Assembly: GCA_029880285.1 (NCBI GenBank)
Contig: JAOUOS010000001.1
Span: 131,131-195,130 of the forward strand
Reading direction: 5' to 3'
DNA length: 64,000 bases
Origin: Spirochaetia bacterium
GTDB lineage: Bacteria; Spirochaetota; Leptospiria; Turneriellales; JAOUOS01
This document shows, one piece after another, positions 10,496 through 62,275 of the stretch. Every line of letters starts with the position of its first letter. Position 1 is the stretch's first letter. Position numbers and translations under genes: made by a program. The notes below the pieces were generated by a model. The model was not told the origin of the DNA, did not search any database, and worked only from the letters and a program-made list of their open reading frames with translations.

Positions 10496-12068
10496 CGCAT
10501 TTTAAACAATCGGGAGAATTTGGATATATATTAGCAAGATTTTTCTCCCAAAACGGTATTTGTTTTTCTCTTACTTGAGCCAAGGTTTCATGCTCAATAT
10601 TCCCTATACAATTTTTGTTCTCAATATCCTGCTTGCAAAAAGAAACACTGCCGTCTGCTCTTATAAACATATCTCTTCTTAAATGCCAGCAAAATGTTCT
10701 TTCTAAAGGGGTCATGTCTGAAACCCGCCTTTCTTTCATAAGAGAAATGTATTTATTATATTTTTGAAATAAAAAAGACACGTTTAGTTCTTCACACAAG
10801 TTAAAAATTTCATCTATTTCATCTTCATTTTCAACTATCTTTAATGTTTGAATGTATATTTTCTCTTTAGCATCATAGCCTAATTCTTTCATCTTTTTGC
10901 CTAAGTTTTTTATATTTTCAATCACTTTATTTTTATTTTCTTTACTGGTTCCATGTAGTTTATCATAATTTTTTAGGCTGTTAATATTAATTATAATTTT
11001 AATCTTATTAAAGTTCGTATGTTCAATACAATTAAGTAACCTTGATAGATATAATCCATTCGATTCTATAATTAAATGCTTTAATTTTTCTGTTTCTAAT
11101 AATTTAGTGATAAATTCTTCTACTTTCGGATGTTCTAAAGGTTCACCCATTCCCGCCAATGAAATTGAAGTATCACCAATGCTATCATTTAGATAGTTTA
11201 TAATTTTATTTAAAACATCAAAACTCATTTGGTTTTTTTCTAATATAGTAAATTGTCTCGGACAGAAATCACATTTATATTCACAATCAGAATTTATTTC
11301 TATTTCAAGATACGACGGAAAAGAAAATAAAATCTTAGGATCATTTTTTATTATTTCTTCTATCTCAGAGTATATATTTTCTTTTTCTTTTACAATATGA
11401 AAAAAACGACTTGTTTTCATTATTGATCTAATATTTTTACAGCTAAAATCCAGCCTTAGCATTCTAAGATCTGGAGCAATAAAATCAATTTCAGCGTGAA
11501 ATTTATTAATGTTTTTTTCAACAAAAGTCTTTAAAGGCATAGAAAGCTCATCTGGTATTTTATCTTCATTCCCGGTTTCGTCAAATTCTAATGATAGAGG
11601 TGTAAAAATACTTTTTGAAAAAAATACGGGAGAAATCCCCGGCGGGATATTCTCACAAAAAGTATAATCGGCTTCATATTTACAATGTATACTAAATAAT
11701 TGTTCAGCAGCAGATTTATCCCAAATGGGAAAAATAGAATCAAAAAAAACAATATAATTTATATTAGAGTAGTTTTTATAAATATTTTTTATTACATACA
11801 ATTCATGTTTAAATTCAACTTGTTTTATATTTTGAGTATTTTTAAGATTAAAATATGTTCTTATAAATTCAGAATCTTCTGCCGCGAAAAAAAGTAAATT
11901 ATTATTTTTTAATAAAGTATTAATAAAATTTTCTATTAATTTATCCGCTTTAATATCTGTATTATATTTTTCAAAAGCCTTTTTCCAAACATCTATAACC
12001 GCGTTGCTTAGATATACCAGTATAGCAGTTTTTTCATTTTTTATTGAAGTGATTTGATTTTCAACCAT
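10470..12068 (-). CDS. Radical SAM / SPASM-domain protein with ~250-aa N-terminal nucleotidyltransferase-like extension
   Basis: CX3CX2C motif (SDCEYKCDFCPRQF), GGE-like LAGMGEPL, and a C-terminal Cys-rich SPASM-like segment (FCWHLRRDMFIRADGSVSFCKQD...NCIGN...CLKCDEY). Confidence 0.8.
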   Translation of the reverse strand: MVENQITSIKNEKTAILVYLSNAVIDVWKKAFEKYNTDIKADKLIENFINTLLKNNNLLFFAAEDSEFIRTYFNLKNTQNIKQVEFKHELYVIKNIYKNYSNINYIVFFDSIFPIWDKSAAEQLFSIHCKYEADYTFCENIPPGISPVFFSKSIFTPLSLEFDETGNEDKIPDELSMPLKTFVEKNINKFHAEIDFIAPDLRMLRLDFSCKNIRSIMKTSRFFHIVKEKENIYSEIEEIIKNDPKILFSFPSYLEIEINSDCEYKCDFCPRQFTILEKNQMSFDVLNKIINYLNDSIGDTSISLAGMGEPLEHPKVEEFITKLLETEKLKHLIIESNGLYLSRLLNCIEHTNFNKIKIIININSLKNYDKLHGTSKENKNKVIENIKNLGKKMKELGYDAKEKIYIQTLKIVENEDEIDEIFNLCEELNVSFLFQKYNKYISLMKERRVSDMTPLERTFCWHLRRDMFIRADGSVSFCKQDIENKNCIGNIEHETLAQVREKQIPFWEKNLANIYPNSPDCLKCDEYFTFNL

Positions 12069-17889: not shown

Positions 17890-18606
17890 ATGCATATTTT
17901 TGAGTATCCAGCTTTTCTTGAAATACTTAAAAATATAAATTATATTTTAAGAAATAATAAAAATAATTTAATATATAAAAAAGAAGCTGAAGCTCTCCCT
18001 GAAAGCTATAATTTATCATTTCATCCTATATTACCTGAAAAAACAATAGAAAAAATATATAATGAAAAACTATGCGTAAGTTGCTCGAAGAGAATATCCT
18101 ATAAAGAGAATCAGTTTGATGATAACAGGCCTAAACTTCCCTTTTTAATTTTAATTCATAACACTTTAAAAAAGGACCAAAAATACTTTCAAGACATAAA
18201 TGCTGATACTATGTTTAAAAATATGATACAAAATACTTTAGGCTTTTTACCTGAAGATTTTTTAATAAGAGAAGTCTTAAGATGTCATTTTAGCGCTGAC
18301 GAAATAGAGAATGAAATTTGGATTAAAAACTGCAAATCTAATATTTATAATGATATTAAAAATTTTAAAATCAAAGGCATTTTAATAATTGGTGACGCCG
18401 TTAAATTTTTTATAAATAAAACTGAAATGAATAATAATTTTAATAAAGTAACAGAAGTTTTAGGGTTACCTGCCGTCTTTTCAGCCGGACCTAATAGAAT
18501 TATATATTTACAAAATAAAAAATATACAAATACAATTATAAAACAAGAAAAACTAAAAATATTTAACTCTATAAAATTATTTAAAGAAAAAATAATGCGT
18601 ATTTAA
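17890..18606 (+). CDS. Uracil-DNA glycosylase-superfamily-like protein with degenerate catalytic motifs
   Basis: The overall pattern resembles family-4 UDG (CVSC..., LPFLILIHNT in place of the GEAPG block, ILIIGDAV, GLPAVFSAGPN in place of the HPS block). This was assigned by eye only. Confidence 0.4.
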   Translation: MHIFEYPAFLEILKNINYILRNNKNNLIYKKEAEALPESYNLSFHPILPEKTIEKIYNEKLCVSCSKRISYKENQFDDNRPKLPFLILIHNTLKKDQKYFQDINADTMFKNMIQNTLGFLPEDFLIREVLRCHFSADEIENEIWIKNCKSNIYNDIKNFKIKGILIIGDAVKFFINKTEMNNNFNKVTEVLGLPAVFSAGPNRIIYLQNKKYTNTIIKQEKLKIFNSIKLFKEKIMRI

Positions 18607-18945
18607 TGGAGACGGCGGGAGTTGAACCCGCGTCCTACCGCACAAATAAAAGCTTTCTACATGCTTAGTTTGTATTTTGTTTTCAGAAATTTATTCTCTA
18701 CAAACAAAGTCAAAATTTCCCAGCGAATATTTTCTCAACAATGTTTATTCGCGTCACACTGCCCAGCTTTCTAAGGTTATACCATAAAAGTTGACGAAAG
18801 CATTCAATTTTCACGGTGTTTGGCTAATTATGCAGCCAAAGCAAATTCATTATTGTCGGCAGTTATTACCGATTCCCTTTTTAGAAGAGGGTACTTCGCG
18901 TGCTTTTCTTTCACTCAAAACGGCAGTCGATACCAGTTCGTCCCC
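18607..18945 (-). ncRNA. ssrA: tmRNA (transfer-messenger RNA)
   Basis: On the minus strand the 5' end is GGGGACGAACTGGTATCGAC and the 3' end is GGACGCGGGTTCAACTCCCGCCGTCTCCA. The acceptor stem pairs with the diagnostic G3:U. The internal tag ORF is GCC GAC AAT AAT GAA TTT GCT TTG GCT GCA TAA = ADNNEFALAA* (18828-18860). Length is 339 nt. Confidence 0.92.
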
Positions 18946-52183: not shown

Positions 52184-53197
52184 CTATGAATTTTCAATCC
52201 ATTTTTTTAAAACAGATATCCAGTCTTTATTATAATTTAAAGATGACGCTAAATAAAGATTCTTACCTCCTGCCTTTATAAAATTTTCTTTAGCTCTTAT
52301 GCCTATTTCTTCAAGAGTTTCTAAACAATCTGCGGTAAAAGAAGGACAAACAAGCAAAATATTTTTTTTATTTTCTCTTGCGGCTTTTATAATTTCTGTT
52401 TCAGTAAAAGGTGAAAGCCAAGAATCTTTAGAAAAACGAGATTGATAGCAAATAGAATACTGGCTGTTAGAAATTTTCAATTCTTTTGCCGTCAGATTTG
52501 TCGTTTCAATTGTTTGATGTTTATAGCAGGTTAAATGCGCGTTTGATTTTTTTTTACAGCAATTTTCTGTTTGTAAACAATGATTTTTGGTTTTATCGGT
52601 TTTTTTTAAATGACGAAGCGGAATCCCATGATAACTAAAAAATATGTGATCTATTTTTTTTTTCAAGAAAGGCTTTATTGTTAAAGCTAAAGAATTTATA
52701 TAATCTTTATCATTATAAAATGGAGGATGGAACTTTAATTCAATATTCTTAAAATATCTTGAAGCAATACTTTTTACTTTTTCTACACAGGTTTCATAGC
52801 TTGACATAGCATAATGAGGGAACATAGGAATTATATAAATTTTTTTATTTTCTTTCGCAAGTTTATTAAGTCCTTTTACAATAGAAAGAGAACCATATCT
52901 CATTGATATTTCTATTGAATATTTATTTTTTAAGGCTTTTCTTAGTGACTCTGCCGCATAAAGAGAATTTACAATTAACGGAGAACCTTCCTGTGTCCAA
53001 ATTTGCTTGTAAGCTTTCGCAGATTTACGGGGACGAAAAGGCAGTATAAAAAAATAAATAATTATAAACCTGAATAAAAAAGGAATATCAATTACTCTTT
53101 TATCCATTAAAAATTCTGCCAGATATCGACGTACATCTGAAGTTTTACAGGTATCTGGAGACCCCAGATTTACCAATAATATACCGGAATTTTTCAT
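52184..53197 (-). CDS. hemH: Ferrochelatase (with internal Cys-rich insertion)
   Basis: GILLVNLGSPD, IIPMFPHYA, FSYHGIPLRH, and a C-terminal PSFTADCLETLEE. Confidence 0.9.
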   Translation of the reverse strand: MKNSGILLVNLGSPDTCKTSDVRRYLAEFLMDKRVIDIPFLFRFIIIYFFILPFRPRKSAKAYKQIWTQEGSPLIVNSLYAAESLRKALKNKYSIEISMRYGSLSIVKGLNKLAKENKKIYIIPMFPHYAMSSYETCVEKVKSIASRYFKNIELKFHPPFYNDKDYINSLALTIKPFLKKKIDHIFFSYHGIPLRHLKKTDKTKNHCLQTENCCKKKSNAHLTCYKHQTIETTNLTAKELKISNSQYSICYQSRFSKDSWLSPFTETEIIKAARENKKNILLVCPSFTADCLETLEEIGIRAKENFIKAGGKNLYLASSLNYNKDWISVLKKWIENS

Positions 53198-53198
53198 T

Positions 53199-53864
53199 TT
53201 ATGGTGAAAGTCTTACTGTTTTCCATATGTTATTTTCACTTCTATATTCTATTCTATCATGCAGTCTTGATTCTCTGCCCTGCCAAAATTCAATAACTGA
53301 AGGTATTAATATATATCCACCCCAATATTCAGGCATAGTTATTTCTTTTTCGGCAAATTCTTTTTTATATTTTGCGAACTCATCTTCTAAAAATTTTCTA
53401 TCTTTAATTTCATGACTTTGTTTTGAGGCCCATGCCCCTATTTTACTTGCCTCTGGACGGGTTTTAAAATATTTTTCTGCTTCTTCTTTTGAAATTTTTT
53501 TAACAATACCGTCAATTCGTACCTGACGGCTTAAAGGTGACCAGTAAAAAAGATAAGACGCCTTATTGTTATTTTTTAGTTCTTGCGCCTTCCTGCTTAG
53601 ATAATTTGTATAAAAAACAAACCCTTCTTTATCAAAAGATTTTAATAATACAATACGTGTATCAGGAGAATTATCTTCTCTTACCGTACAAAGAGCCCCG
53701 GCGTTCACGTCTATAACTTCAATACTTAAAGCCTCTTCAAACCATTTTTCAAATTGCTTTATGGGATCAGCAAAAATATCTTTTTCTAATAAACCATTGC
53801 CGGTATATTCTCTTCTTAATTTTTCGTATTTTTCTTTTTTTATTTCTTCGTTTTTTTCACTCAA
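53199..53864 (-). CDS. pdxH: Pyridoxamine 5'-phosphate oxidase
   Basis: RIVLLK, the FYTNYLSRKAQEL pattern, IEFWQGRESRLHDRIEY, and a terminal RLSP. TTG start preceded by AAGAGGT. Confidence 0.9.
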   Translation of the reverse strand: MSEKNEEIKKEKYEKLRREYTGNGLLEKDIFADPIKQFEKWFEEALSIEVIDVNAGALCTVREDNSPDTRIVLLKSFDKEGFVFYTNYLSRKAQELKNNNKASYLFYWSPLSRQVRIDGIVKKISKEEAEKYFKTRPEASKIGAWASKQSHEIKDRKFLEDEFAKYKKEFAEKEITMPEYWGGYILIPSVIEFWQGRESRLHDRIEYRSENNIWKTVRLSP

Positions 53865-55691: not shown

Positions 55692-57377
55692 ATGGATTTT
55701 GCTTCAATTATAACACTTCTAGGCGGCTTGTCGGTATTCCTTTTCGGCATGAAACTAATGAGTGAGTCACTTCAGTCGGTTGCCGGCGATCGCTTAAAAA
55801 CCATTTTAGGTAAAATGACAACCAATCGATTTACTGGTGTTTTTAGCGGTTTATGGATAACGGCTTTTATACAGTCTTCTTCAGCAACAACAGTTATGGT
55901 AGTGGGGTTTGTAAACGCGGGACTTCTTAGTCTTAACCAGGCGATAGGACTTATCATGGGAGCCAATATTGGAACCACTATTACTGCGTGGCTTGTCGCG
56001 CTTCTTGGCTTCAAGGTGAAAGTAAGCTCTTTTGCTTTGCCTGCTATAATTATAGGACTTTTACTAACTTTTAAGAAAAATGAATCATCACGCGGATGGG
56101 GTAATACTTTAATAGGGTTTGGAATTCTTTTTTTAGGTTTAGATTTTATGAAAAACTCCATACCCGATGCAGCTAAGCATGCCGAAACTTTCGCTTTTTT
56201 ATCTCAATTTACAGAAGTAAATTATCTATCTATTTTATTTTTTATTTTTATAGGAACACTTTTAACTATTGTTATACAATCATCATCCGCGACAACAACA
56301 ATAACCATAACACTGGCCTTCACTGGTCATATTCCCATTCACGCGGCCCTTGCCATGATATTAGGAGAAAATATCGGAACAACCATAACCGCATTTCTGG
56401 CATCTTTAGCCGGCAATCATGATTCAAAAAAAGCTGCGTTGGCTCATACTCTATTCAATATAATGGGCGTAATTTGGGCAATTCTTTTCTTTTTTCCTTT
56501 TATGCAGTTTATAGATTTTATTGTGCCCGAAGATCCTCTTATAAATAAAGAATCTACAAGATTTCACATTTCAGCTTTTCATACCGCGTTTAATATTATA
56601 AATACGGGTATTTTAATTTGGTTTGTGTCACACATCGAAAGACTAGTTAATTTTTTAGCAAAATATATCATTCCCGCTGATAAGGTAAAAGTAAAGTACA
56701 CAATTCCAGCTCTTCGAAAAGTAATAGGCTTTGGAACCATACATACTCCTGAAGCTGCAATTATAACCCTTGAAGCTCAAAATAAAAAGTTAATTAGAAT
56801 AGCTCTAAAAGGGTTAAAACGAATGGAATATTTAATCATTGATAAATATCAAAATGAAAGTGTAGAAGCTTTACTTGAAGAAGAAAAAGAATTAGATACG
56901 GCCCGTACTGAAACTTTACATTATTTGGCGCAAGTGCAAGAAATAGGAATAACAGGTCACATCGGTTTAAAAGTATTTGAAATAATGGAAAGAATTAAAA
57001 TTATTGAAGAGATAAGTGATAACATGGCCAAAGTAGCTAAAAAAATTCGAAACGCGCATAACTATAAAATTGCTTTAAGTAAAAAGAAACAGAATATTAT
57101 TATAGAACAAATAAACTATATTAAACAACAAAAAAAATTATTAAAAGATAATATGAATGAGTTAACTAATCCTTCTATAAAAAAATTAAGTCAAAAACTA
57201 TATGACGAGAGTCATGCAATATTTAGAGAACTTGATAAAAAAACATTAAATAGAAAGAAAATAGAATCTAATAAACACGAATTATCCGCTTTTTTTTATT
57301 TTATGGATATGGCAAGGCTGCTTGATTTAATATCAAAACATCTGCATAAAATAATTATTCTAGATGATTTAGAATAA
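55692..57377 (+). CDS. Na/Pi-cotransporter family protein with PhoU-like C-terminal domain
   Basis: Duplicated QSSSATT motifs (FIQSSSATTVMVVG and VIQSSSATTTITITL), GANIGTT/GENIGTT, and a helical C-terminus. The ATG at 55692 (MDFASIITLLGG) is preferred over the track TTG at 55632. Confidence 0.85.
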   Translation: MDFASIITLLGGLSVFLFGMKLMSESLQSVAGDRLKTILGKMTTNRFTGVFSGLWITAFIQSSSATTVMVVGFVNAGLLSLNQAIGLIMGANIGTTITAWLVALLGFKVKVSSFALPAIIIGLLLTFKKNESSRGWGNTLIGFGILFLGLDFMKNSIPDAAKHAETFAFLSQFTEVNYLSILFFIFIGTLLTIVIQSSSATTTITITLAFTGHIPIHAALAMILGENIGTTITAFLASLAGNHDSKKAALAHTLFNIMGVIWAILFFFPFMQFIDFIVPEDPLINKESTRFHISAFHTAFNIINTGILIWFVSHIERLVNFLAKYIIPADKVKVKYTIPALRKVIGFGTIHTPEAAIITLEAQNKKLIRIALKGLKRMEYLIIDKYQNESVEALLEEEKELDTARTETLHYLAQVQEIGITGHIGLKVFEIMERIKIIEEISDNMAKVAKKIRNAHNYKIALSKKKQNIIIEQINYIKQQKKLLKDNMNELTNPSIKKLSQKLYDESHAIFRELDKKTLNRKKIESNKHELSAFFYFMDMARLLDLISKHLHKIIILDDLE

Positions 57378-57401
57378 GTTTTTACTTTATTATAAATAAA
57401 A

Positions 57402-57583
57402 GCGGCCGGGATCCGCGCTGGCGCGTAAAATTATGAACCTTAGATTTAAGTGGGTTCCATCACTGCTAGAGCTACTCTTCCGGGTGTACCCGTACTTTTG
57501 CTCTAACAAAATATCTGGATCCCTCTGAGGTACATTGATTCATATATTATTTTATCGCGGACAGTACAGATTTTACCGGCCTA
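57402..57583 (+). ncRNA. Candidate structured RNA or palindromic intergenic element (~180 nt, unknown class; strand tentative)
   Basis: An island of about 45% GC in an AT-rich spacer. Eight nested co-linear helices were read by eye: 57404-09/57576-81, 57412-17/57556-61, 57426-31/57549-54, 57432-37/57539-44, 57438-44/57524-30 (one U:G, valid only on the + strand), 57452-59/57516-23, 57467-72/57500-05, and the apex CGGG-TGTA-CCCG at 57481-92. Confidence 0.35.
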
Positions 57584-57762
57584 TGCCATAGGCATAAATA
57601 CAATTTAAAAAATATATTTCAAAATTTAAAGAACTTTTTAAAAAACTTCTTGATTATATGATATAAAAGCTTAATTTATCAGATATTCAAATTTACAACT
57701 ATTTGACATATTTTAATTAAAAACAATAGCCATTCAGTAACATTTTTTCGTATAAGAGTTAT

Positions 57763-59076
57763 ATGAGAAAAATGTTTGAGAATTTTCATTTGTTAACATG
57801 GAACTATGAAGACCATGACTTTGAATGCCTTTCTACATTTCCCGATTCACGGGGCTTTTATGAAACAAACTGGCGTCCTTCTGAAGAGGTGTTGTCCGTG
57901 CTTTATTTAGCCACATGTAACAGAGTTGAATTGTATCTTCAAATAAGTGATACTGTAAAAAAATCAATAACTCGTGAAGAATTACTGCTATATCTAGAGA
58001 AATCACCTATCGCTGAACAAATAAAAAATATACTGCCTGTATGTAAGCATGGTGCATCAGCTATTAAACATTTTTTTCAGGTAACATCGGGCTTAAGAAG
58101 TATGGCTCTGGGTGAAACACAAATAACAGGGCAGGTAAAAAGAGATATAGAAAGGGCTTCAAAAAACGGTTATTTAACGTCATTATTTGAAAATATTTCT
58201 AAAAAGGCTCTTGAAACGCAAAAAAGTATTCGCAATAATACAGAAGTAGGCAAAAGCCCAATATCTTTACTTACTCTAATGGAAAGAGAAATTGAAGCAG
58301 AAACAGGTTCACAATCTAATTTTACTAATGTAGCCATTGGCGGTACCGGCGATATGTCTAGTAAGGTTTTAAAACATGTTATTAATAAGGGTGCTGAAAA
58401 TATAACCGTAATAAGACATGATACACAAAGAGAACTTCCTTTAGAATTTAAAGAACTACTTGAAAAATATACAGCGGGTAAAAATATTCAAATAAATTTT
58501 TTAACATGGGATAATGTAATTGAAAAATCTGTAAAAATATCAAATTCCTGGGATATATTAATTACAGCAACTCATTCAGAAAAACCGGTATTAACTTATA
58601 AATTAATTAATGAACTAAGAGAAATTAAATATTTAAAACAAAATGCTTATGTAGTTGATCTTGGTATACCACCAAATGTTGAAATTGTAGAAAAAACTAT
58701 TGAAAATAAAGAAAAGATTATCAATCTTCAAACACTTTTAAAGCAAAGTGAACAAAATTTAGCTTTAAGAAGATTTCACCAGCAGCAGGCGATGCCTTTA
58801 ATTGAAAAATCAATTCATGCTTTCTGGATGGATCAAATATACAGAAATCATCCCGAAGTTATAACCACTGCTCTCGATTGCGCTGCGAAAGAAAGAGATA
58901 AAGAATGGGAAAATTTATTGGCCGGACCCTTAAAAAATATAACGAATAAACAAAAAAGAGTTTTAATTGATTATTTTAAGAAACAAGAAAGAAAAACTTT
59001 AAGGCTTCATAAAGAAATTTTTATAGAAATGCTTGTTACAGGCAATCACAGCAGTATAAGCGCTGACTCTCATTAA
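57763..59076 (+). CDS. hemA: Glutamyl-tRNA reductase
   Basis: LATCNRVELY, GETQITGQVK, an NAD-binding GGTGDMS segment, and the hem cluster context. Confidence 0.88.
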   Translation: MRKMFENFHLLTWNYEDHDFECLSTFPDSRGFYETNWRPSEEVLSVLYLATCNRVELYLQISDTVKKSITREELLLYLEKSPIAEQIKNILPVCKHGASAIKHFFQVTSGLRSMALGETQITGQVKRDIERASKNGYLTSLFENISKKALETQKSIRNNTEVGKSPISLLTLMEREIEAETGSQSNFTNVAIGGTGDMSSKVLKHVINKGAENITVIRHDTQRELPLEFKELLEKYTAGKNIQINFLTWDNVIEKSVKISNSWDILITATHSEKPVLTYKLINELREIKYLKQNAYVVDLGIPPNVEIVEKTIENKEKIINLQTLLKQSEQNLALRRFHQQQAMPLIEKSIHAFWMDQIYRNHPEVITTALDCAAKERDKEWENLLAGPLKNITNKQKRVLIDYFKKQERKTLRLHKEIFIEMLVTGNHSSISADSH

Positions 59077-59090
59077 TAAAGCGCCTTTCA

Positions 59091-60935
59091 ATGCAGATAG
59101 TAACCCGTGATTCATTTTTAGCTTTGGCTCAGACTCTTACTGTCTCAGAAAAGTTAATTCAAGCAGGAATTCATCCGGCTATAAATGCAATAAAAACTCA
59201 AGGGGATATAAAATTAAAAGACCCTCTTTATGAAGTAAGCAAACAGGCAAAAGACGAGAAAGAAGGCAAGGCATTTTTTACTAAAGAACTTGAAGACGCC
59301 CTACTTTCAAATACCGGTGATTTAGCTGTTCATTCTTTAAAAGACCTGCCTACAGAAATGCCAAACGGTCTCTTTTTAAGCTCAGTTATACTTCCCGAAG
59401 ATAAAGGTGATACAATTGTAACAACACAGCCTTTGCCTGAAGATTTCACGGAACAAAAAAACCTTCTTGAAAAATACACTTTAGGAACTTCTTCATTAAG
59501 AAGAATAGCTTTATTAAAATTCTGGTTTCATAACGCAAAAATTATACCTGTAAGAGGTAATTTAATTACTCGAATTAATAAATTAATTCAAAAAACAGAC
59601 GGATTGAATGCCCTTCTCTTAGCGACATCGGGACTTAAAAGACTTCTTGAATTTCAAAAATCATGGCCCCAATTAAAAACATACTGGCAGAATAAAATTG
59701 ATAACTCTATTATTAAAAAACTAGATACCGACTATAATAAACTTTCTGAAATACTAAGTAATAAGCTATACTATTATTCTATCTCTCAAGAAAACTTTCA
59801 ACCCGCAGTAGGTCAAGGTACTTTAGGAACAGAAATGCGTGAAAACGATAAAGAAAATATATCGCATCTTTTAAAGGCAATTCCTGAAGACGCTGTTCAC
59901 AGAAAAATAATTGATACAGAAAGACATATACTTCATGAACTAGGCGCCGGATGTCACGTTCCCTTCGGCTTAAATATTCAGCCAGCTTCTCTTAATCTAC
60001 AAGAAAAGAAAATAATAACTGGCTCTGCTGAAAAAAATATAAAAGCCTTATCGGCCGATGTTTTTTATGCCGCCGATTTTAATCCAAATAGTGATGAAAA
60101 AGTAAATGCCTATAAAGCCGTAAGATATTTTCCCTTTAATAACAATAAAGAAAAAATTATGGCACTTATTGAAGAAATAAAAGGCAATACCTTTCCTGTT
60201 GTATATACGGGAAAAAACTCACAAGACATAGAGAATACACTTAAAGGCTCAACTCATGATTTTTTTCACGTACCTCTTATAGACACTATGTATATAGAAG
60301 CTGAAAATTTGTATGAGAAGAATTCATATGACGTTCTTGTTATAAGTTCTCTGGCTTCATTAAAATCTAAGGCTATTAAAGAATTTAGGAATATTAAAAC
60401 CATAGTGGCCGTGGGTGAAAAAACAAAAGTAGAAACAGAAAAAGTATTTACTGATGCTAAGGTTTTGGTACCTGAAACCTATAACGCGATATCGGCTGCT
60501 AAATTAATAGAAAAATTAAAAATAAAAAACATCCTGTGGCTTGGAGCAAGAGCCGGAATAACCGATGGCATTGATTATCTAACCAGTAAAAATATGAATG
60601 TGGATGTATTAAATTTATATGAAAATGTTGAAGTAAATATTGATAATTCATGTTCAGAATGGGAAAATAAAAATATTTCTAAGGAAGAATTTTTAGCAAA
60701 AAAAGCGTTTTGGATATTTTGCTCGCCTTCGGCTGTTTCTGCTTATTTAAAACAAAATCTACATCATAAAGATCATCTAATTGCCTGTTTGGGAACAACA
60801 ACCGCAACGGCTTTCTGGTCAAAAGATATAATTCCGTATGTTATTGCTTCAAAAAGTCTGCTTAAAACAATTGCAGAAGAAATTATGGGCAAAACAAAAA
60901 CGTCAGAATGGGAAACTAAATATTGGCAATTTTAA
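59091..60935 (+). CDS. hemC: Bifunctional hydroxymethylbilane synthase / uroporphyrinogen-III synthase (HemC-HemD fusion)
   Basis: The N-terminal half has HemC motifs (TRDSFLALAQT, AVHSLKDLPT, GTSSLRR, RGNLITRINKL, LGAGCHVPFG). The C-terminal ~270 aa are HemD-like (two alpha/beta half-domains). Confidence 0.85.
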   Translation: MQIVTRDSFLALAQTLTVSEKLIQAGIHPAINAIKTQGDIKLKDPLYEVSKQAKDEKEGKAFFTKELEDALLSNTGDLAVHSLKDLPTEMPNGLFLSSVILPEDKGDTIVTTQPLPEDFTEQKNLLEKYTLGTSSLRRIALLKFWFHNAKIIPVRGNLITRINKLIQKTDGLNALLLATSGLKRLLEFQKSWPQLKTYWQNKIDNSIIKKLDTDYNKLSEILSNKLYYYSISQENFQPAVGQGTLGTEMRENDKENISHLLKAIPEDAVHRKIIDTERHILHELGAGCHVPFGLNIQPASLNLQEKKIITGSAEKNIKALSADVFYAADFNPNSDEKVNAYKAVRYFPFNNNKEKIMALIEEIKGNTFPVVYTGKNSQDIENTLKGSTHDFFHVPLIDTMYIEAENLYEKNSYDVLVISSLASLKSKAIKEFRNIKTIVAVGEKTKVETEKVFTDAKVLVPETYNAISAAKLIEKLKIKNILWLGARAGITDGIDYLTSKNMNVDVLNLYENVEVNIDNSCSEWENKNISKEEFLAKKAFWIFCSPSAVSAYLKQNLHHKDHLIACLGTTTATAFWSKDIIPYVIASKSLLKTIAEEIMGKTKTSEWETKYWQF

Positions 60936-60952
60936 TTTAAAAGGAGATAAAA

Positions 60953-62275
60953 ATGGATCATAACAATTCAAATAAAATTTGGCAAGAATCTGTAAAATAT
61001 TTAGCAGGCGGAGTTAATTCACCAGTTAGAGCCTATGGCTCAGTAGGCGGCAATCCTGTAGTTATGAAAAAAGGAGAAGGCGCTTTTTTAATTGATGAGG
61101 ATAATAATAAATATCTTGATTTTGTTAACAGCTGGGGACCTCTTATTTTGGGACACTGCAATAAAGAATTAGTTGATGTCTTAAAAAATCAGGTTGAAAA
61201 AGGAACTTCTTTTGGCACAATCACAAAAGCTGAAAATGAACTTGCTCGCCTTATCTGTGAAAATATTCATCATGTTGAAATGATTCGTTTTGTTAATTCA
61301 GGTACCGAAGCCGTAATGAGCGCGCTACGACTCGCGCGCGGGTATACTTCAAAATCAAAAATTATTAAATTTGAAGGATGTTACCACGGACATCATGACA
61401 GTATGCTGGTAAAAGCCGGTTCAGGTCTTTTAACATTTTCAGGAGATATCTCGCTATCTAGCAGCCCCGGAGTACCCGAATCTTTTGCAGAAGACACTAT
61501 TGTTCTACCTCTTGACGAAGAAGAAATTCTTGAAAAAACTTTTGAAAGCTTAGGCGATAAAATAGCCGCTGTTATTCTTGAAGCCGTACCGGCTAACTCA
61601 GGCTTACTGCCCCAAAGGCTTGAATTTGTCAAAAAAATTCAAATACTTTGTGAAAAGTATTCCGCCTTATTTATAGCCGATGAAGTTATAACAGGGTTCA
61701 GACTCGGATTTTCAGGATTTTGCGGTAAGTATAATATTAAGCCAGATTTAGTAACCTATGGTAAAATTATCGGAGGTGGTCTTCCCGTTGGCGCTTTTGG
61801 CGGTAAAAAAGAAATAATGAACCACCTTTCACCTGTAGGCAAGGTATACCAGGCAGGAACACTATCAGGAAATCCGCTGGCAATGGCCGCGGGTTATACA
61901 AGTTTAAAAATATTAAAAGAACAAAATGTTTACGAGCACTTAAATAATTTAGCTACTTATTTAAAATCATCATTTGATAAATTAATAATGCCCGCTTTAA
62001 ATGCAAAATCCTTTACTATAAAACTGGTTCAAGAGGAATCTATCTTCTGGTTAAATATTAGAGAAAAAGATTCAGATGAATTAATACGGCGCGTTGATAA
62101 AATTTGGCAGGATGCCGCGGGTATTTATAAACAAATATTCTGGCATATGCTTGAAAATGGCATTCATATAGCGCCTTCAGCTTATGAGGTAGGTTTCTTA
62201 TCACATCCTATGACAAAAGAAGATATTGACTTTTTTATAAATAATCTTAAAACAGCTATTGATAAAATTGACTAA
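60953..62275 (+). CDS. hemL: Glutamate-1-semialdehyde 2,1-aminomutase
   Basis: GGVNSPVRA, VNSGTEA, DEVITGFR, TYGKIIGGGLP. Strong SD (AAGGAG). Confidence 0.95.
   Translation: MDHNNSNKIWQESVKYLAGGVNSPVRAYGSVGGNPVVMKKGEGAFLIDEDNNKYLDFVNSWGPLILGHCNKELVDVLKNQVEKGTSFGTITKAENELARLICENIHHVEMIRFVNSGTEAVMSALRLARGYTSKSKIIKFEGCYHGHHDSMLVKAGSGLLTFSGDISLSSSPGVPESFAEDTIVLPLDEEEILEKTFESLGDKIAAVILEAVPANSGLLPQRLEFVKKIQILCEKYSALFIADEVITGFRLGFSGFCGKYNIKPDLVTYGKIIGGGLPVGAFGGKKEIMNHLSPVGKVYQAGTLSGNPLAMAAGYTSLKILKEQNVYEHLNNLATYLKSSFDKLIMPALNAKSFTIKLVQEESIFWLNIREKDSDELIRRVDKIWQDAAGIYKQIFWHMLENGIHIAPSAYEVGFLSHPMTKEDIDFFINNLKTAIDKID

Follow-up and report, generated by a model that had tools for sequence, protein, structure and literature searches.

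A minus-strand candidate for a divergent 6S RNA gene between the Na/Pi cotransporter and hemA genes of an uncultured Leptospira-related spirochaete

The spacer between a Na/Pi cotransporter gene and hemA in the 64-kb stretch of DNA that was analysed here (the window) carries an element that, judged by its sequence, its predicted structure, and its orthologue, is likely to be a divergent 6S RNA (ssrS-type) gene on the minus strand. 6S RNA is a small RNA that binds the housekeeping RNA polymerase and damps it, and it is a near-universal global regulator of bacterial transcription. What is new here is an unannotated candidate in an uncultured Leptospira-related spirochaete, and the RNA is probably not novel in kind. 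The initial annotation had proposed a novel small RNA, a cis-regulatory RNA, or an ERIC/MITE-like repeat. The first of these proposals is kept as far as a structured small RNA is concerned but it is given up as to novelty in kind, the RNA probably being 6S RNA.

The element, its orthologue, and the RNA strand

The element is flanked on one side by the end of the Na/Pi cotransporter ORF at 57377 (PF02690 homologues) and on the other side by the start of hemA at 57763 (PF05201 and PF01488), which are the neighbours that had been named at the outset, and no ORF of at least 40 amino acids was found in 57378-57762. The GC content in 100-nt windows across 57400-57599 was 0.51, 0.43, and 0.38 compared to 0.15-0.27 in the flanks, an island of 43-51% GC with flanks of 15-27%, and the earlier description of a GC-rich island in an AT-rich spacer was correct. 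The genomes that are nearest by their related HemA proteins bear the labels Spirochaetia, Leptospirales, Turneriellaceae, and Turneriella, and the relatives of the Na/Pi transporter are one close MAG first and then Leptospira species at about 52% identity. The closest homologue of the transporter is P0122, which has 67% identity and is encoded on a 335-kb JGI contig; only 2 nt separate its stop codon from a clearly homologous element. This orthologous element is at 11692-11865 of the locus L037, directly after the orthologous Na/Pi transporter gene, and its neighbour on the far side is an unrelated hypothetical gene, unlike in the window.

On either strand of the window the element folded into one long irregular hairpin, as had been described, with an energy of -67.6 kcal/mol (z -4.4) on the plus strand and -71.9 kcal/mol (z -5.6) on the minus strand, and on both strands 0 of 200 shuffles were equal or better. 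The minus strand is the RNA strand because the RNAalifold energy of the two sequences was -59.5 kcal/mol on the minus strand vs -38.0 kcal/mol on the plus strand, because 13 G:U cells in the minus strand structure are A:C mismatches on the plus strand, because 10 of the 56 pairs of the plus strand structure break in L037, and because a U-tract follows the closing stem on the minus strand only. When L037 was folded alone the energy was -61.8 on the minus strand vs -45.8 on the plus strand. The initial annotation had weakly preferred the plus strand on account of a T57441:G57527 pair; these positions fall within the central bubble and are unpaired in the two-sequence consensus, and the preference is reversed by the G:U analysis, the RNAalifold energy, and the trailing U-tract. 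Its apex, CGGG-UGUA-CCCG, is present as described at 57481-57492. A 14-nt loop that it had placed at 57562-57575 was not reproduced, the conserved structure having 5 nt opposite 2 nt there, and a short hairpin at 57582-57596 is not kept in the orthologue, where its 3' arm is deleted.

The cis-regulatory proposal needs the disfavoured plus strand. There the element would belong to the 3' UTR of the transcript for the Na/Pi transporter, and its hairpin would either stabilise or terminate this mRNA or have a regulatory role in cis. This is very improbable even though the element starts 2-25 nt past the transporter stop in both genomes, the transporter is the only neighbour that is conserved between both genomes, and the plus strand of the window is stable by itself. 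The energies of the consensus and of L037, the A:C mismatches, and the broken pairs given above all argue against it; moreover, no T-run follows the hairpin on the plus strand as for an intrinsic terminator, and the transporter homologues in Leptospira and other relatives are without such a spacer.

The covariation and alignment evidence rests on two sequences, those of the window and L037, which differ in 37 of 176 aligned columns. The 176-nt core consists of six collinear helices, with 51 pairs in total, and a bubble of 13/12 nt. In both sequences each of the 51 consensus pairs is a standard pair; 7 pairs have changed in both partners and 7 in one partner, and no pair was broken. In a control in which the 3' partners were slid by 1-3 columns, pairing was 34-45% and almost all the double changes were lost. 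When the fold predicted from the window only was used, which avoids circularity in the pair-retention test, 52 of 55 pairs were kept in L037 vs 43.6 +/- 2.2 with randomly placed substitutions (P = 1.5e-4). The conservation with compensatory changes in the orthologue supports the structured small RNA that had been proposed initially, and on this comparative evidence the element is a conserved gene of a structured RNA on the minus strand, single-copy in the sequence searched. The substitutions cluster in the closing arm (17 of 63 positions differ) and in apical helix b (12 of 20), where they are compensated, and helices 2 and 5 are supported by covariation. The differences amount to 1 of 13 positions in the 5' bubble strand, 4 of 12 in the 3' bubble strand, 1 of 16 in each of the bubble-flanking helices, and 0 of 27 in the apical region. 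Since the bubble-flanking helices are invariant the central bubble is without covariation support, and the minimum-free-energy fold of L037 departs from the consensus near the bubble. The distribution of the differences over the parts is as expected of an RNA in which unpaired parts contact protein.

Further copies were looked for in several ways. Among the 36 loci that were compared for hemA synteny, the closest relative by hemA has groES upstream of hemA and the element is absent, and in the relative L047, which is on a short contig, the sequence upstream of hemA differs. The transporter loci that were inspected in L. biflexa and five further contigs had no spacer with the element. When the metagenome collection was scanned with the invariant 5'-bubble block, only the contig of L037 and one chance match (L041) came up, and no third orthologue. 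A covariance model that was built from the window and L037 copies (R1) retrieved from 206 kb (the window and related loci) only the two known copies, with the core in the window at 57405-57580(-). By the R1 search and a pattern search the 64-kb window and the 21.7-kb L037 have a single copy each, and the other related loci have none. As the element is thus single-copy in 206 kb and is at an orthologous position, the proposal of an ERIC/MITE repeat was rejected. What the element shares with ERIC, REP, or MITE-like palindromic units that have no RNA function is a full-length imperfect palindrome in an intergenic spacer. It differs from them in that no dispersed copies were found, with one copy per locus in the 206 kb; a single further contig in the metagenome collection has the conserved block; and the compensatory substitutions together with the strand-asymmetric G:U cells point to selection on one RNA strand. 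The probability left for such a repeat is accordingly slight in the extreme.

Resemblance to 6S RNA

When the element was scanned against Rfam, RF00013 was the only full-length match in both orthologues, on the same strand, and a side remark of the initial annotation that the element recalls a 6S-type architecture thereby became the best lead. The match in the window was at 57408-57575(-) with 23.1 bits over model positions 1-187 and an E-value of 0.011 in a 501-nt search; in the 64-kb search its E-value was 1.3, which is not significant alone. The match in L037 was at 11693-11861(-) with 28.6 bits and a local E-value of 4e-4. Neither the window nor L037 reaches the curated gathering score of RF00013, 46.4 bits, and therefore the element is a candidate divergent 6S RNA and not a database-certified member of the family. 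An E-value scan of the whole window showed that the element is the only 6S candidate in the 64 kb. No match at the element to SRP RNA, RNase P, a riboswitch, or another family was obtained in the Rfam scan. A match to the Bacteroides-1 RNA (RF01694) with 20.6 bits vs a gathering score of 43 and an E-value of 0.42 was discarded; it rests on the hairpin whose 3' arm is deleted in L037 and is a chance match.

The 6S match is probably meaningful despite its low score because the reverse-complement strand, which forms an equally long hairpin, has no 6S match at E<=10 at either locus, because the matched strand agrees with the one indicated by the G:U cells and the U-tract, and because the landmarks and the bubble coincide with those of the model. 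Around the bubble both orthologues have UGAAUC...GGGAUCC / GGAACCCAC(C)U...GGUUCA where the consensus has uGAgCC...GGGa / CCCACCU...GGuUCa. On the closing side of the bubble UGAAUC/GGUUCA stands against the consensus uGAgCC/GGuUCa, and on the apical side GGGAUCC/GGAACCCA(C)CU stands against GGGagcc/ggcaCCCACCU. The bubble of 13/12 nt is at positions 45-57 and 130-141, and that of the model, 16/13 nt, is at 43-58 and 132-144. Three G-C pairs (GGG/CCC) close the bubble on the apical side, and a C:G pair followed by a U:G pair closes it on the side of the closing arm.

It has been described that 6S RNAs are rod-shaped molecules of about 200 nt (160-200) in which a closing stem leads to a large, mostly unpaired central bubble and then to a bulged apical stem-loop (PMC8876501), and the passage of PMC4064990 that cites Barrick 2005 states that conserved G-C pairs flank the central bubble on both sides. 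The element agrees with this type in its length of about 180-190 nt, in the rod shape with a central bubble between a closing arm and an apical arm, in the size and position of the bubble, in the landmarks UGA..C/GG.UCA and GGGA..CC/GG.ACCCA(C)CU, in the G-C pairs that close the apical side of the bubble, and in being a free-standing gene with a trailing U-tract. It differs from the type in its scores of 23-29 bits vs 46.4, in being AT-rich, in having U:G and C:G at the closing-arm side of the bubble and not two G-C pairs, and in the invariance of its apical 27 nt. It is also without a linked gene for 5-formyltetrahydrofolate cyclo-ligase, to which ssrS is linked in E. coli and in many other bacteria too (PMC4064990).

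Some of these differences would also fit if the RNA were a lineage-specific rod-shaped small RNA of the minus strand and not 6S RNA, for example one bound by another protein through the invariant 27-nt apical region, its likeness to the 6S model being generic to long bulged hairpins. Complete invariance is atypical for 6S terminal loops, the Rfam scores are under the gathering score, and when R1 was searched reciprocally against the E. coli ssrS locus the full-length match coincided with ssrS but was weak (7.2 bits). However, the reverse complement is an equally rod-like hairpin and yet is without a 6S match, the landmarks specific to 6S (UGA..C/GG.UCA and GGGA/CCCA(C)CU) are found where the model has them, as is the bubble, and no other Rfam family matches at full length, and for these reasons we regard a rod RNA outside the 6S family as unlikely. 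More broadly, it is rather unlikely that the element is other than a plain 6S RNA, which could come about in two ways, either as a lineage-specific rod RNA with another partner or as a 6S RNA with an extra function in the invariant 27-nt apical module. If either of these were true, deep-branching Leptospirales-like spirochaetes would have a class of structured RNA, or a subclass of 6S RNA, that is new.

6S homologues in AT-rich or deep-branching lineages often miss the thresholds of covariance models. A literature search for a 6S RNA of Leptospira found no paper describing one. Read as the gene of a divergent 6S RNA, the locus gives an uncultured lineage related to the Leptospirales a credible 6S candidate and could seed a 6S search in Leptospira and relatives. 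The outcome is a correction of the annotation, in which the strand is corrected and the flag of a novel RNA or repeat is removed, and it brings no new kind of biology.

Parts of the candidate RNA and its proposed mode of action

The candidate ssrS-like transcript is about 190 nt long and would extend over 57398-57589 (-), its 3' end being placed at the U-tract and its 5' end being set at about 57587-57589 by inference; all the parts that follow are on the minus strand. The terminal closing helix is formed by the 5' arm GGCCGG (57576-57581) and the 3' arm CCGGCC (57404-57409), with GCCGG/CCGGC invariant in both orthologues. The closing arm pairs its 5' strand at 57550-57570 (columns 11-31 of alignment A4) with its 3' strand at 57412-57430 (A4 columns 151-169), and its 17 pairs include 2 with changes in both partners and 3 with a change in one partner, while no pair was broken. 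The P2 helix, which is next to the bubble, consists of the 5' strand UAUGAAUC (57537-57544), which aligns with the 6S consensus uGAgCC, and the 3' strand GGUUCAUA (57432-57439), which aligns with the consensus GGuUCa; 7 of its 8 pairs are invariant. The central bubble has the 13-nt 5' strand AAUGUACCUCAGA (57524-57536), with the single position that differs from the orthologue, and the 12-nt 3' strand ACUUAAAUCUAA (57440-57451), which aligns with CCCACCU..A.. of the RF00013 consensus. Beyond the bubble is apical helix a, with the 5' strand GGGAUCCA (57516-57523), which matches the consensus GGGa.cc and contributes to the three G-C pairs that close the bubble, and the 3' strand UGGAACCC (57452-57459), which matches the consensus ggcaCCCA; 7 pairs of this helix are kept. 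In apical helix b the 5' strand at 57500-57509 pairs with the 3' strand at 57463-57472, and these 10 pairs include 5 with changes in both partners, 2 with a change in one partner, and no broken pair. The rod is capped by the invariant apical region of 27 nt at 57473-57499 (the GCAAAAGUACGGGUACACCCGGAAGAGUAG region), which includes the hairpin CGGG-UACA-CCCG at 57481-57492. This region starts about 22-24 positions from the edge of the bubble, and by this spacing it may be a '-35-like' contact, provided that the bubble stands in for the -10 region of an open complex.

A terminator-like U-rich tract, UUUUAUUU, follows the closing stem immediately, at 57394-57401 (-). The U-tract reads CUUUUAUUU in the window; in L037 it reads UUUUAUU and shares nucleotides with the stop codon of the transporter gene. 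The RNA gene is most likely convergent with the Na/Pi transporter gene and divergent from hemA. In L037 at 11686-11697 the stop codon of the convergent transporter gene is abutted and overlapped by the closing stem and the U-tract, with a gap of 2 nt, and therefore the two transcripts would have to overlap or to terminate in a common zone.

Just upstream of the closing stem is the conserved block TTATGCCTATGGC at 57585-57597 (-), which is the site of the short hairpin mentioned above. As read from the sequence, a part of the -10 element is probably contained in this block, as are the discriminator and the start of the 6S promoter. Together with the trailing U-tract, the block is an indirect indication of a discrete transcript. 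The sequence and alignment A2 point to a candidate promoter at 57594-57622 (-) that is made up of TTGAAA (57622-57617), 17 nt, and TGT-ATTTAT (-10 at 57599-57594). The counterpart of the candidate extended -10 in L037 is TGT-GATTAT, and TTGAAA in the window or TTTACC in L037 is 17-18 nt upstream. In a consensus promoter scan this candidate was below the cut-off and was not reported, and its assignment as the extended -10 promoter of the 6S candidate is tentative. For an upstream match of the scan, CTGATA-18-TATAAT (57682-57653, minus strand), conservation in L037 was not seen.

By analogy with known 6S RNAs the following sequence of events can be proposed. Transcription on the minus strand would run from about 57589 to the U-tract at about 57398 and would yield an RNA of about 190 nt that folds into a rod of the closing arm, the 13/12-nt central bubble, and the apical arm with its small hairpin cap. 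This rod would mimic an open promoter and bind the holoenzyme of RNA polymerase with the housekeeping sigma factor, and sigma-70-type transcription would thus be damped under nutrient scarcity. Upon a nutrient upshift a short product RNA would be transcribed by the polymerase from the 5' bubble strand together with the adjoining helix, and the P2 5' strand UAUGAAUC is a putative template for it. The product RNA is predicted to be 5'-AUUGAUUCAUAUA..., with U57534 as the candidate start. We take U57534 to be the equivalent of U44, the start of the product RNA in E. coli, by alignment with the 6S consensus, and the predicted product AUUGAUUCA... would then presumably parallel the E. coli product AUCGGCUCA....

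Copying would unwind P2, and the 3' strand that is freed would pair again with ACCUCAG of the 5' bubble in a collapse helix, leading to release of the enzyme. Such a rearrangement with collapse of the bubble has been described for the 6S RNAs of B. subtilis and A. aeolicus (PMC8876501). When the template positions were blocked in silico, the RNA of the window refolded and ACCU.CAG of the distal 5' bubble paired with CUA.AGGU. In L037 6 of 7 pairs of the collapse helix are possible, but the constrained fold prefers a small hairpin in the 3' bubble. The in-silico refolding is suggestive of a central bubble collapse helix and is not proof of it. The element is like the 6S-1 RNA of B. subtilis and the A. 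aeolicus type in that ACCNCAG of the distal 5' bubble can pair with CUNAGGU, which in the element comprises the 3' bubble and the freed P2 3' strand, with 6 of 7 pairs in both orthologues, and it is different in that its collapse helix is predicted in silico and is without covariation.

Other features of the locus

Several other features were observed in the window. Haem-synthesis genes are present on both sides of the element, at 52184-53864 (-) and at 57763-62275 (+). Those at 52184-53864 (-) are for ferrochelatase and pyridoxamine-phosphate oxidase, and those at 57763-62275 (+) are hemA, a fused porphobilinogen deaminase/uroporphyrinogen-III synthase gene (614 aa), and a class-III aminotransferase (hemL-like) gene. 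About 55 nt upstream of the hemA start there is a 17-nt block, TTTACAACTATTTGACA, which is followed about 17 nt further on by AATAGC. It is invariant in three genomes, at 57692-57730 (+) in the window, 5930-5968 in L001, and 132-170 in L047, and the gene upstream of hemA differs in each of the three. Judged from its sequence, the TTTACAACTATTTGACA block may be a promoter of hemA, with TTGACA as its -35, that is overlapped by an operator. The 5' portion of the hemA coding sequence contains, at 57840-57854 (+), a terminator-like hairpin, TCCCG-ATTCA-CGGGG, that is followed by CTTTTATGAA; it may be due to chance or it may be an attenuation site. Finally, the tmRNA gene at 18604-18945 (-) scored 160.3 bits against RF00023, and tmRNA is the only RNA in the 64-kb window that is above an Rfam gathering score.
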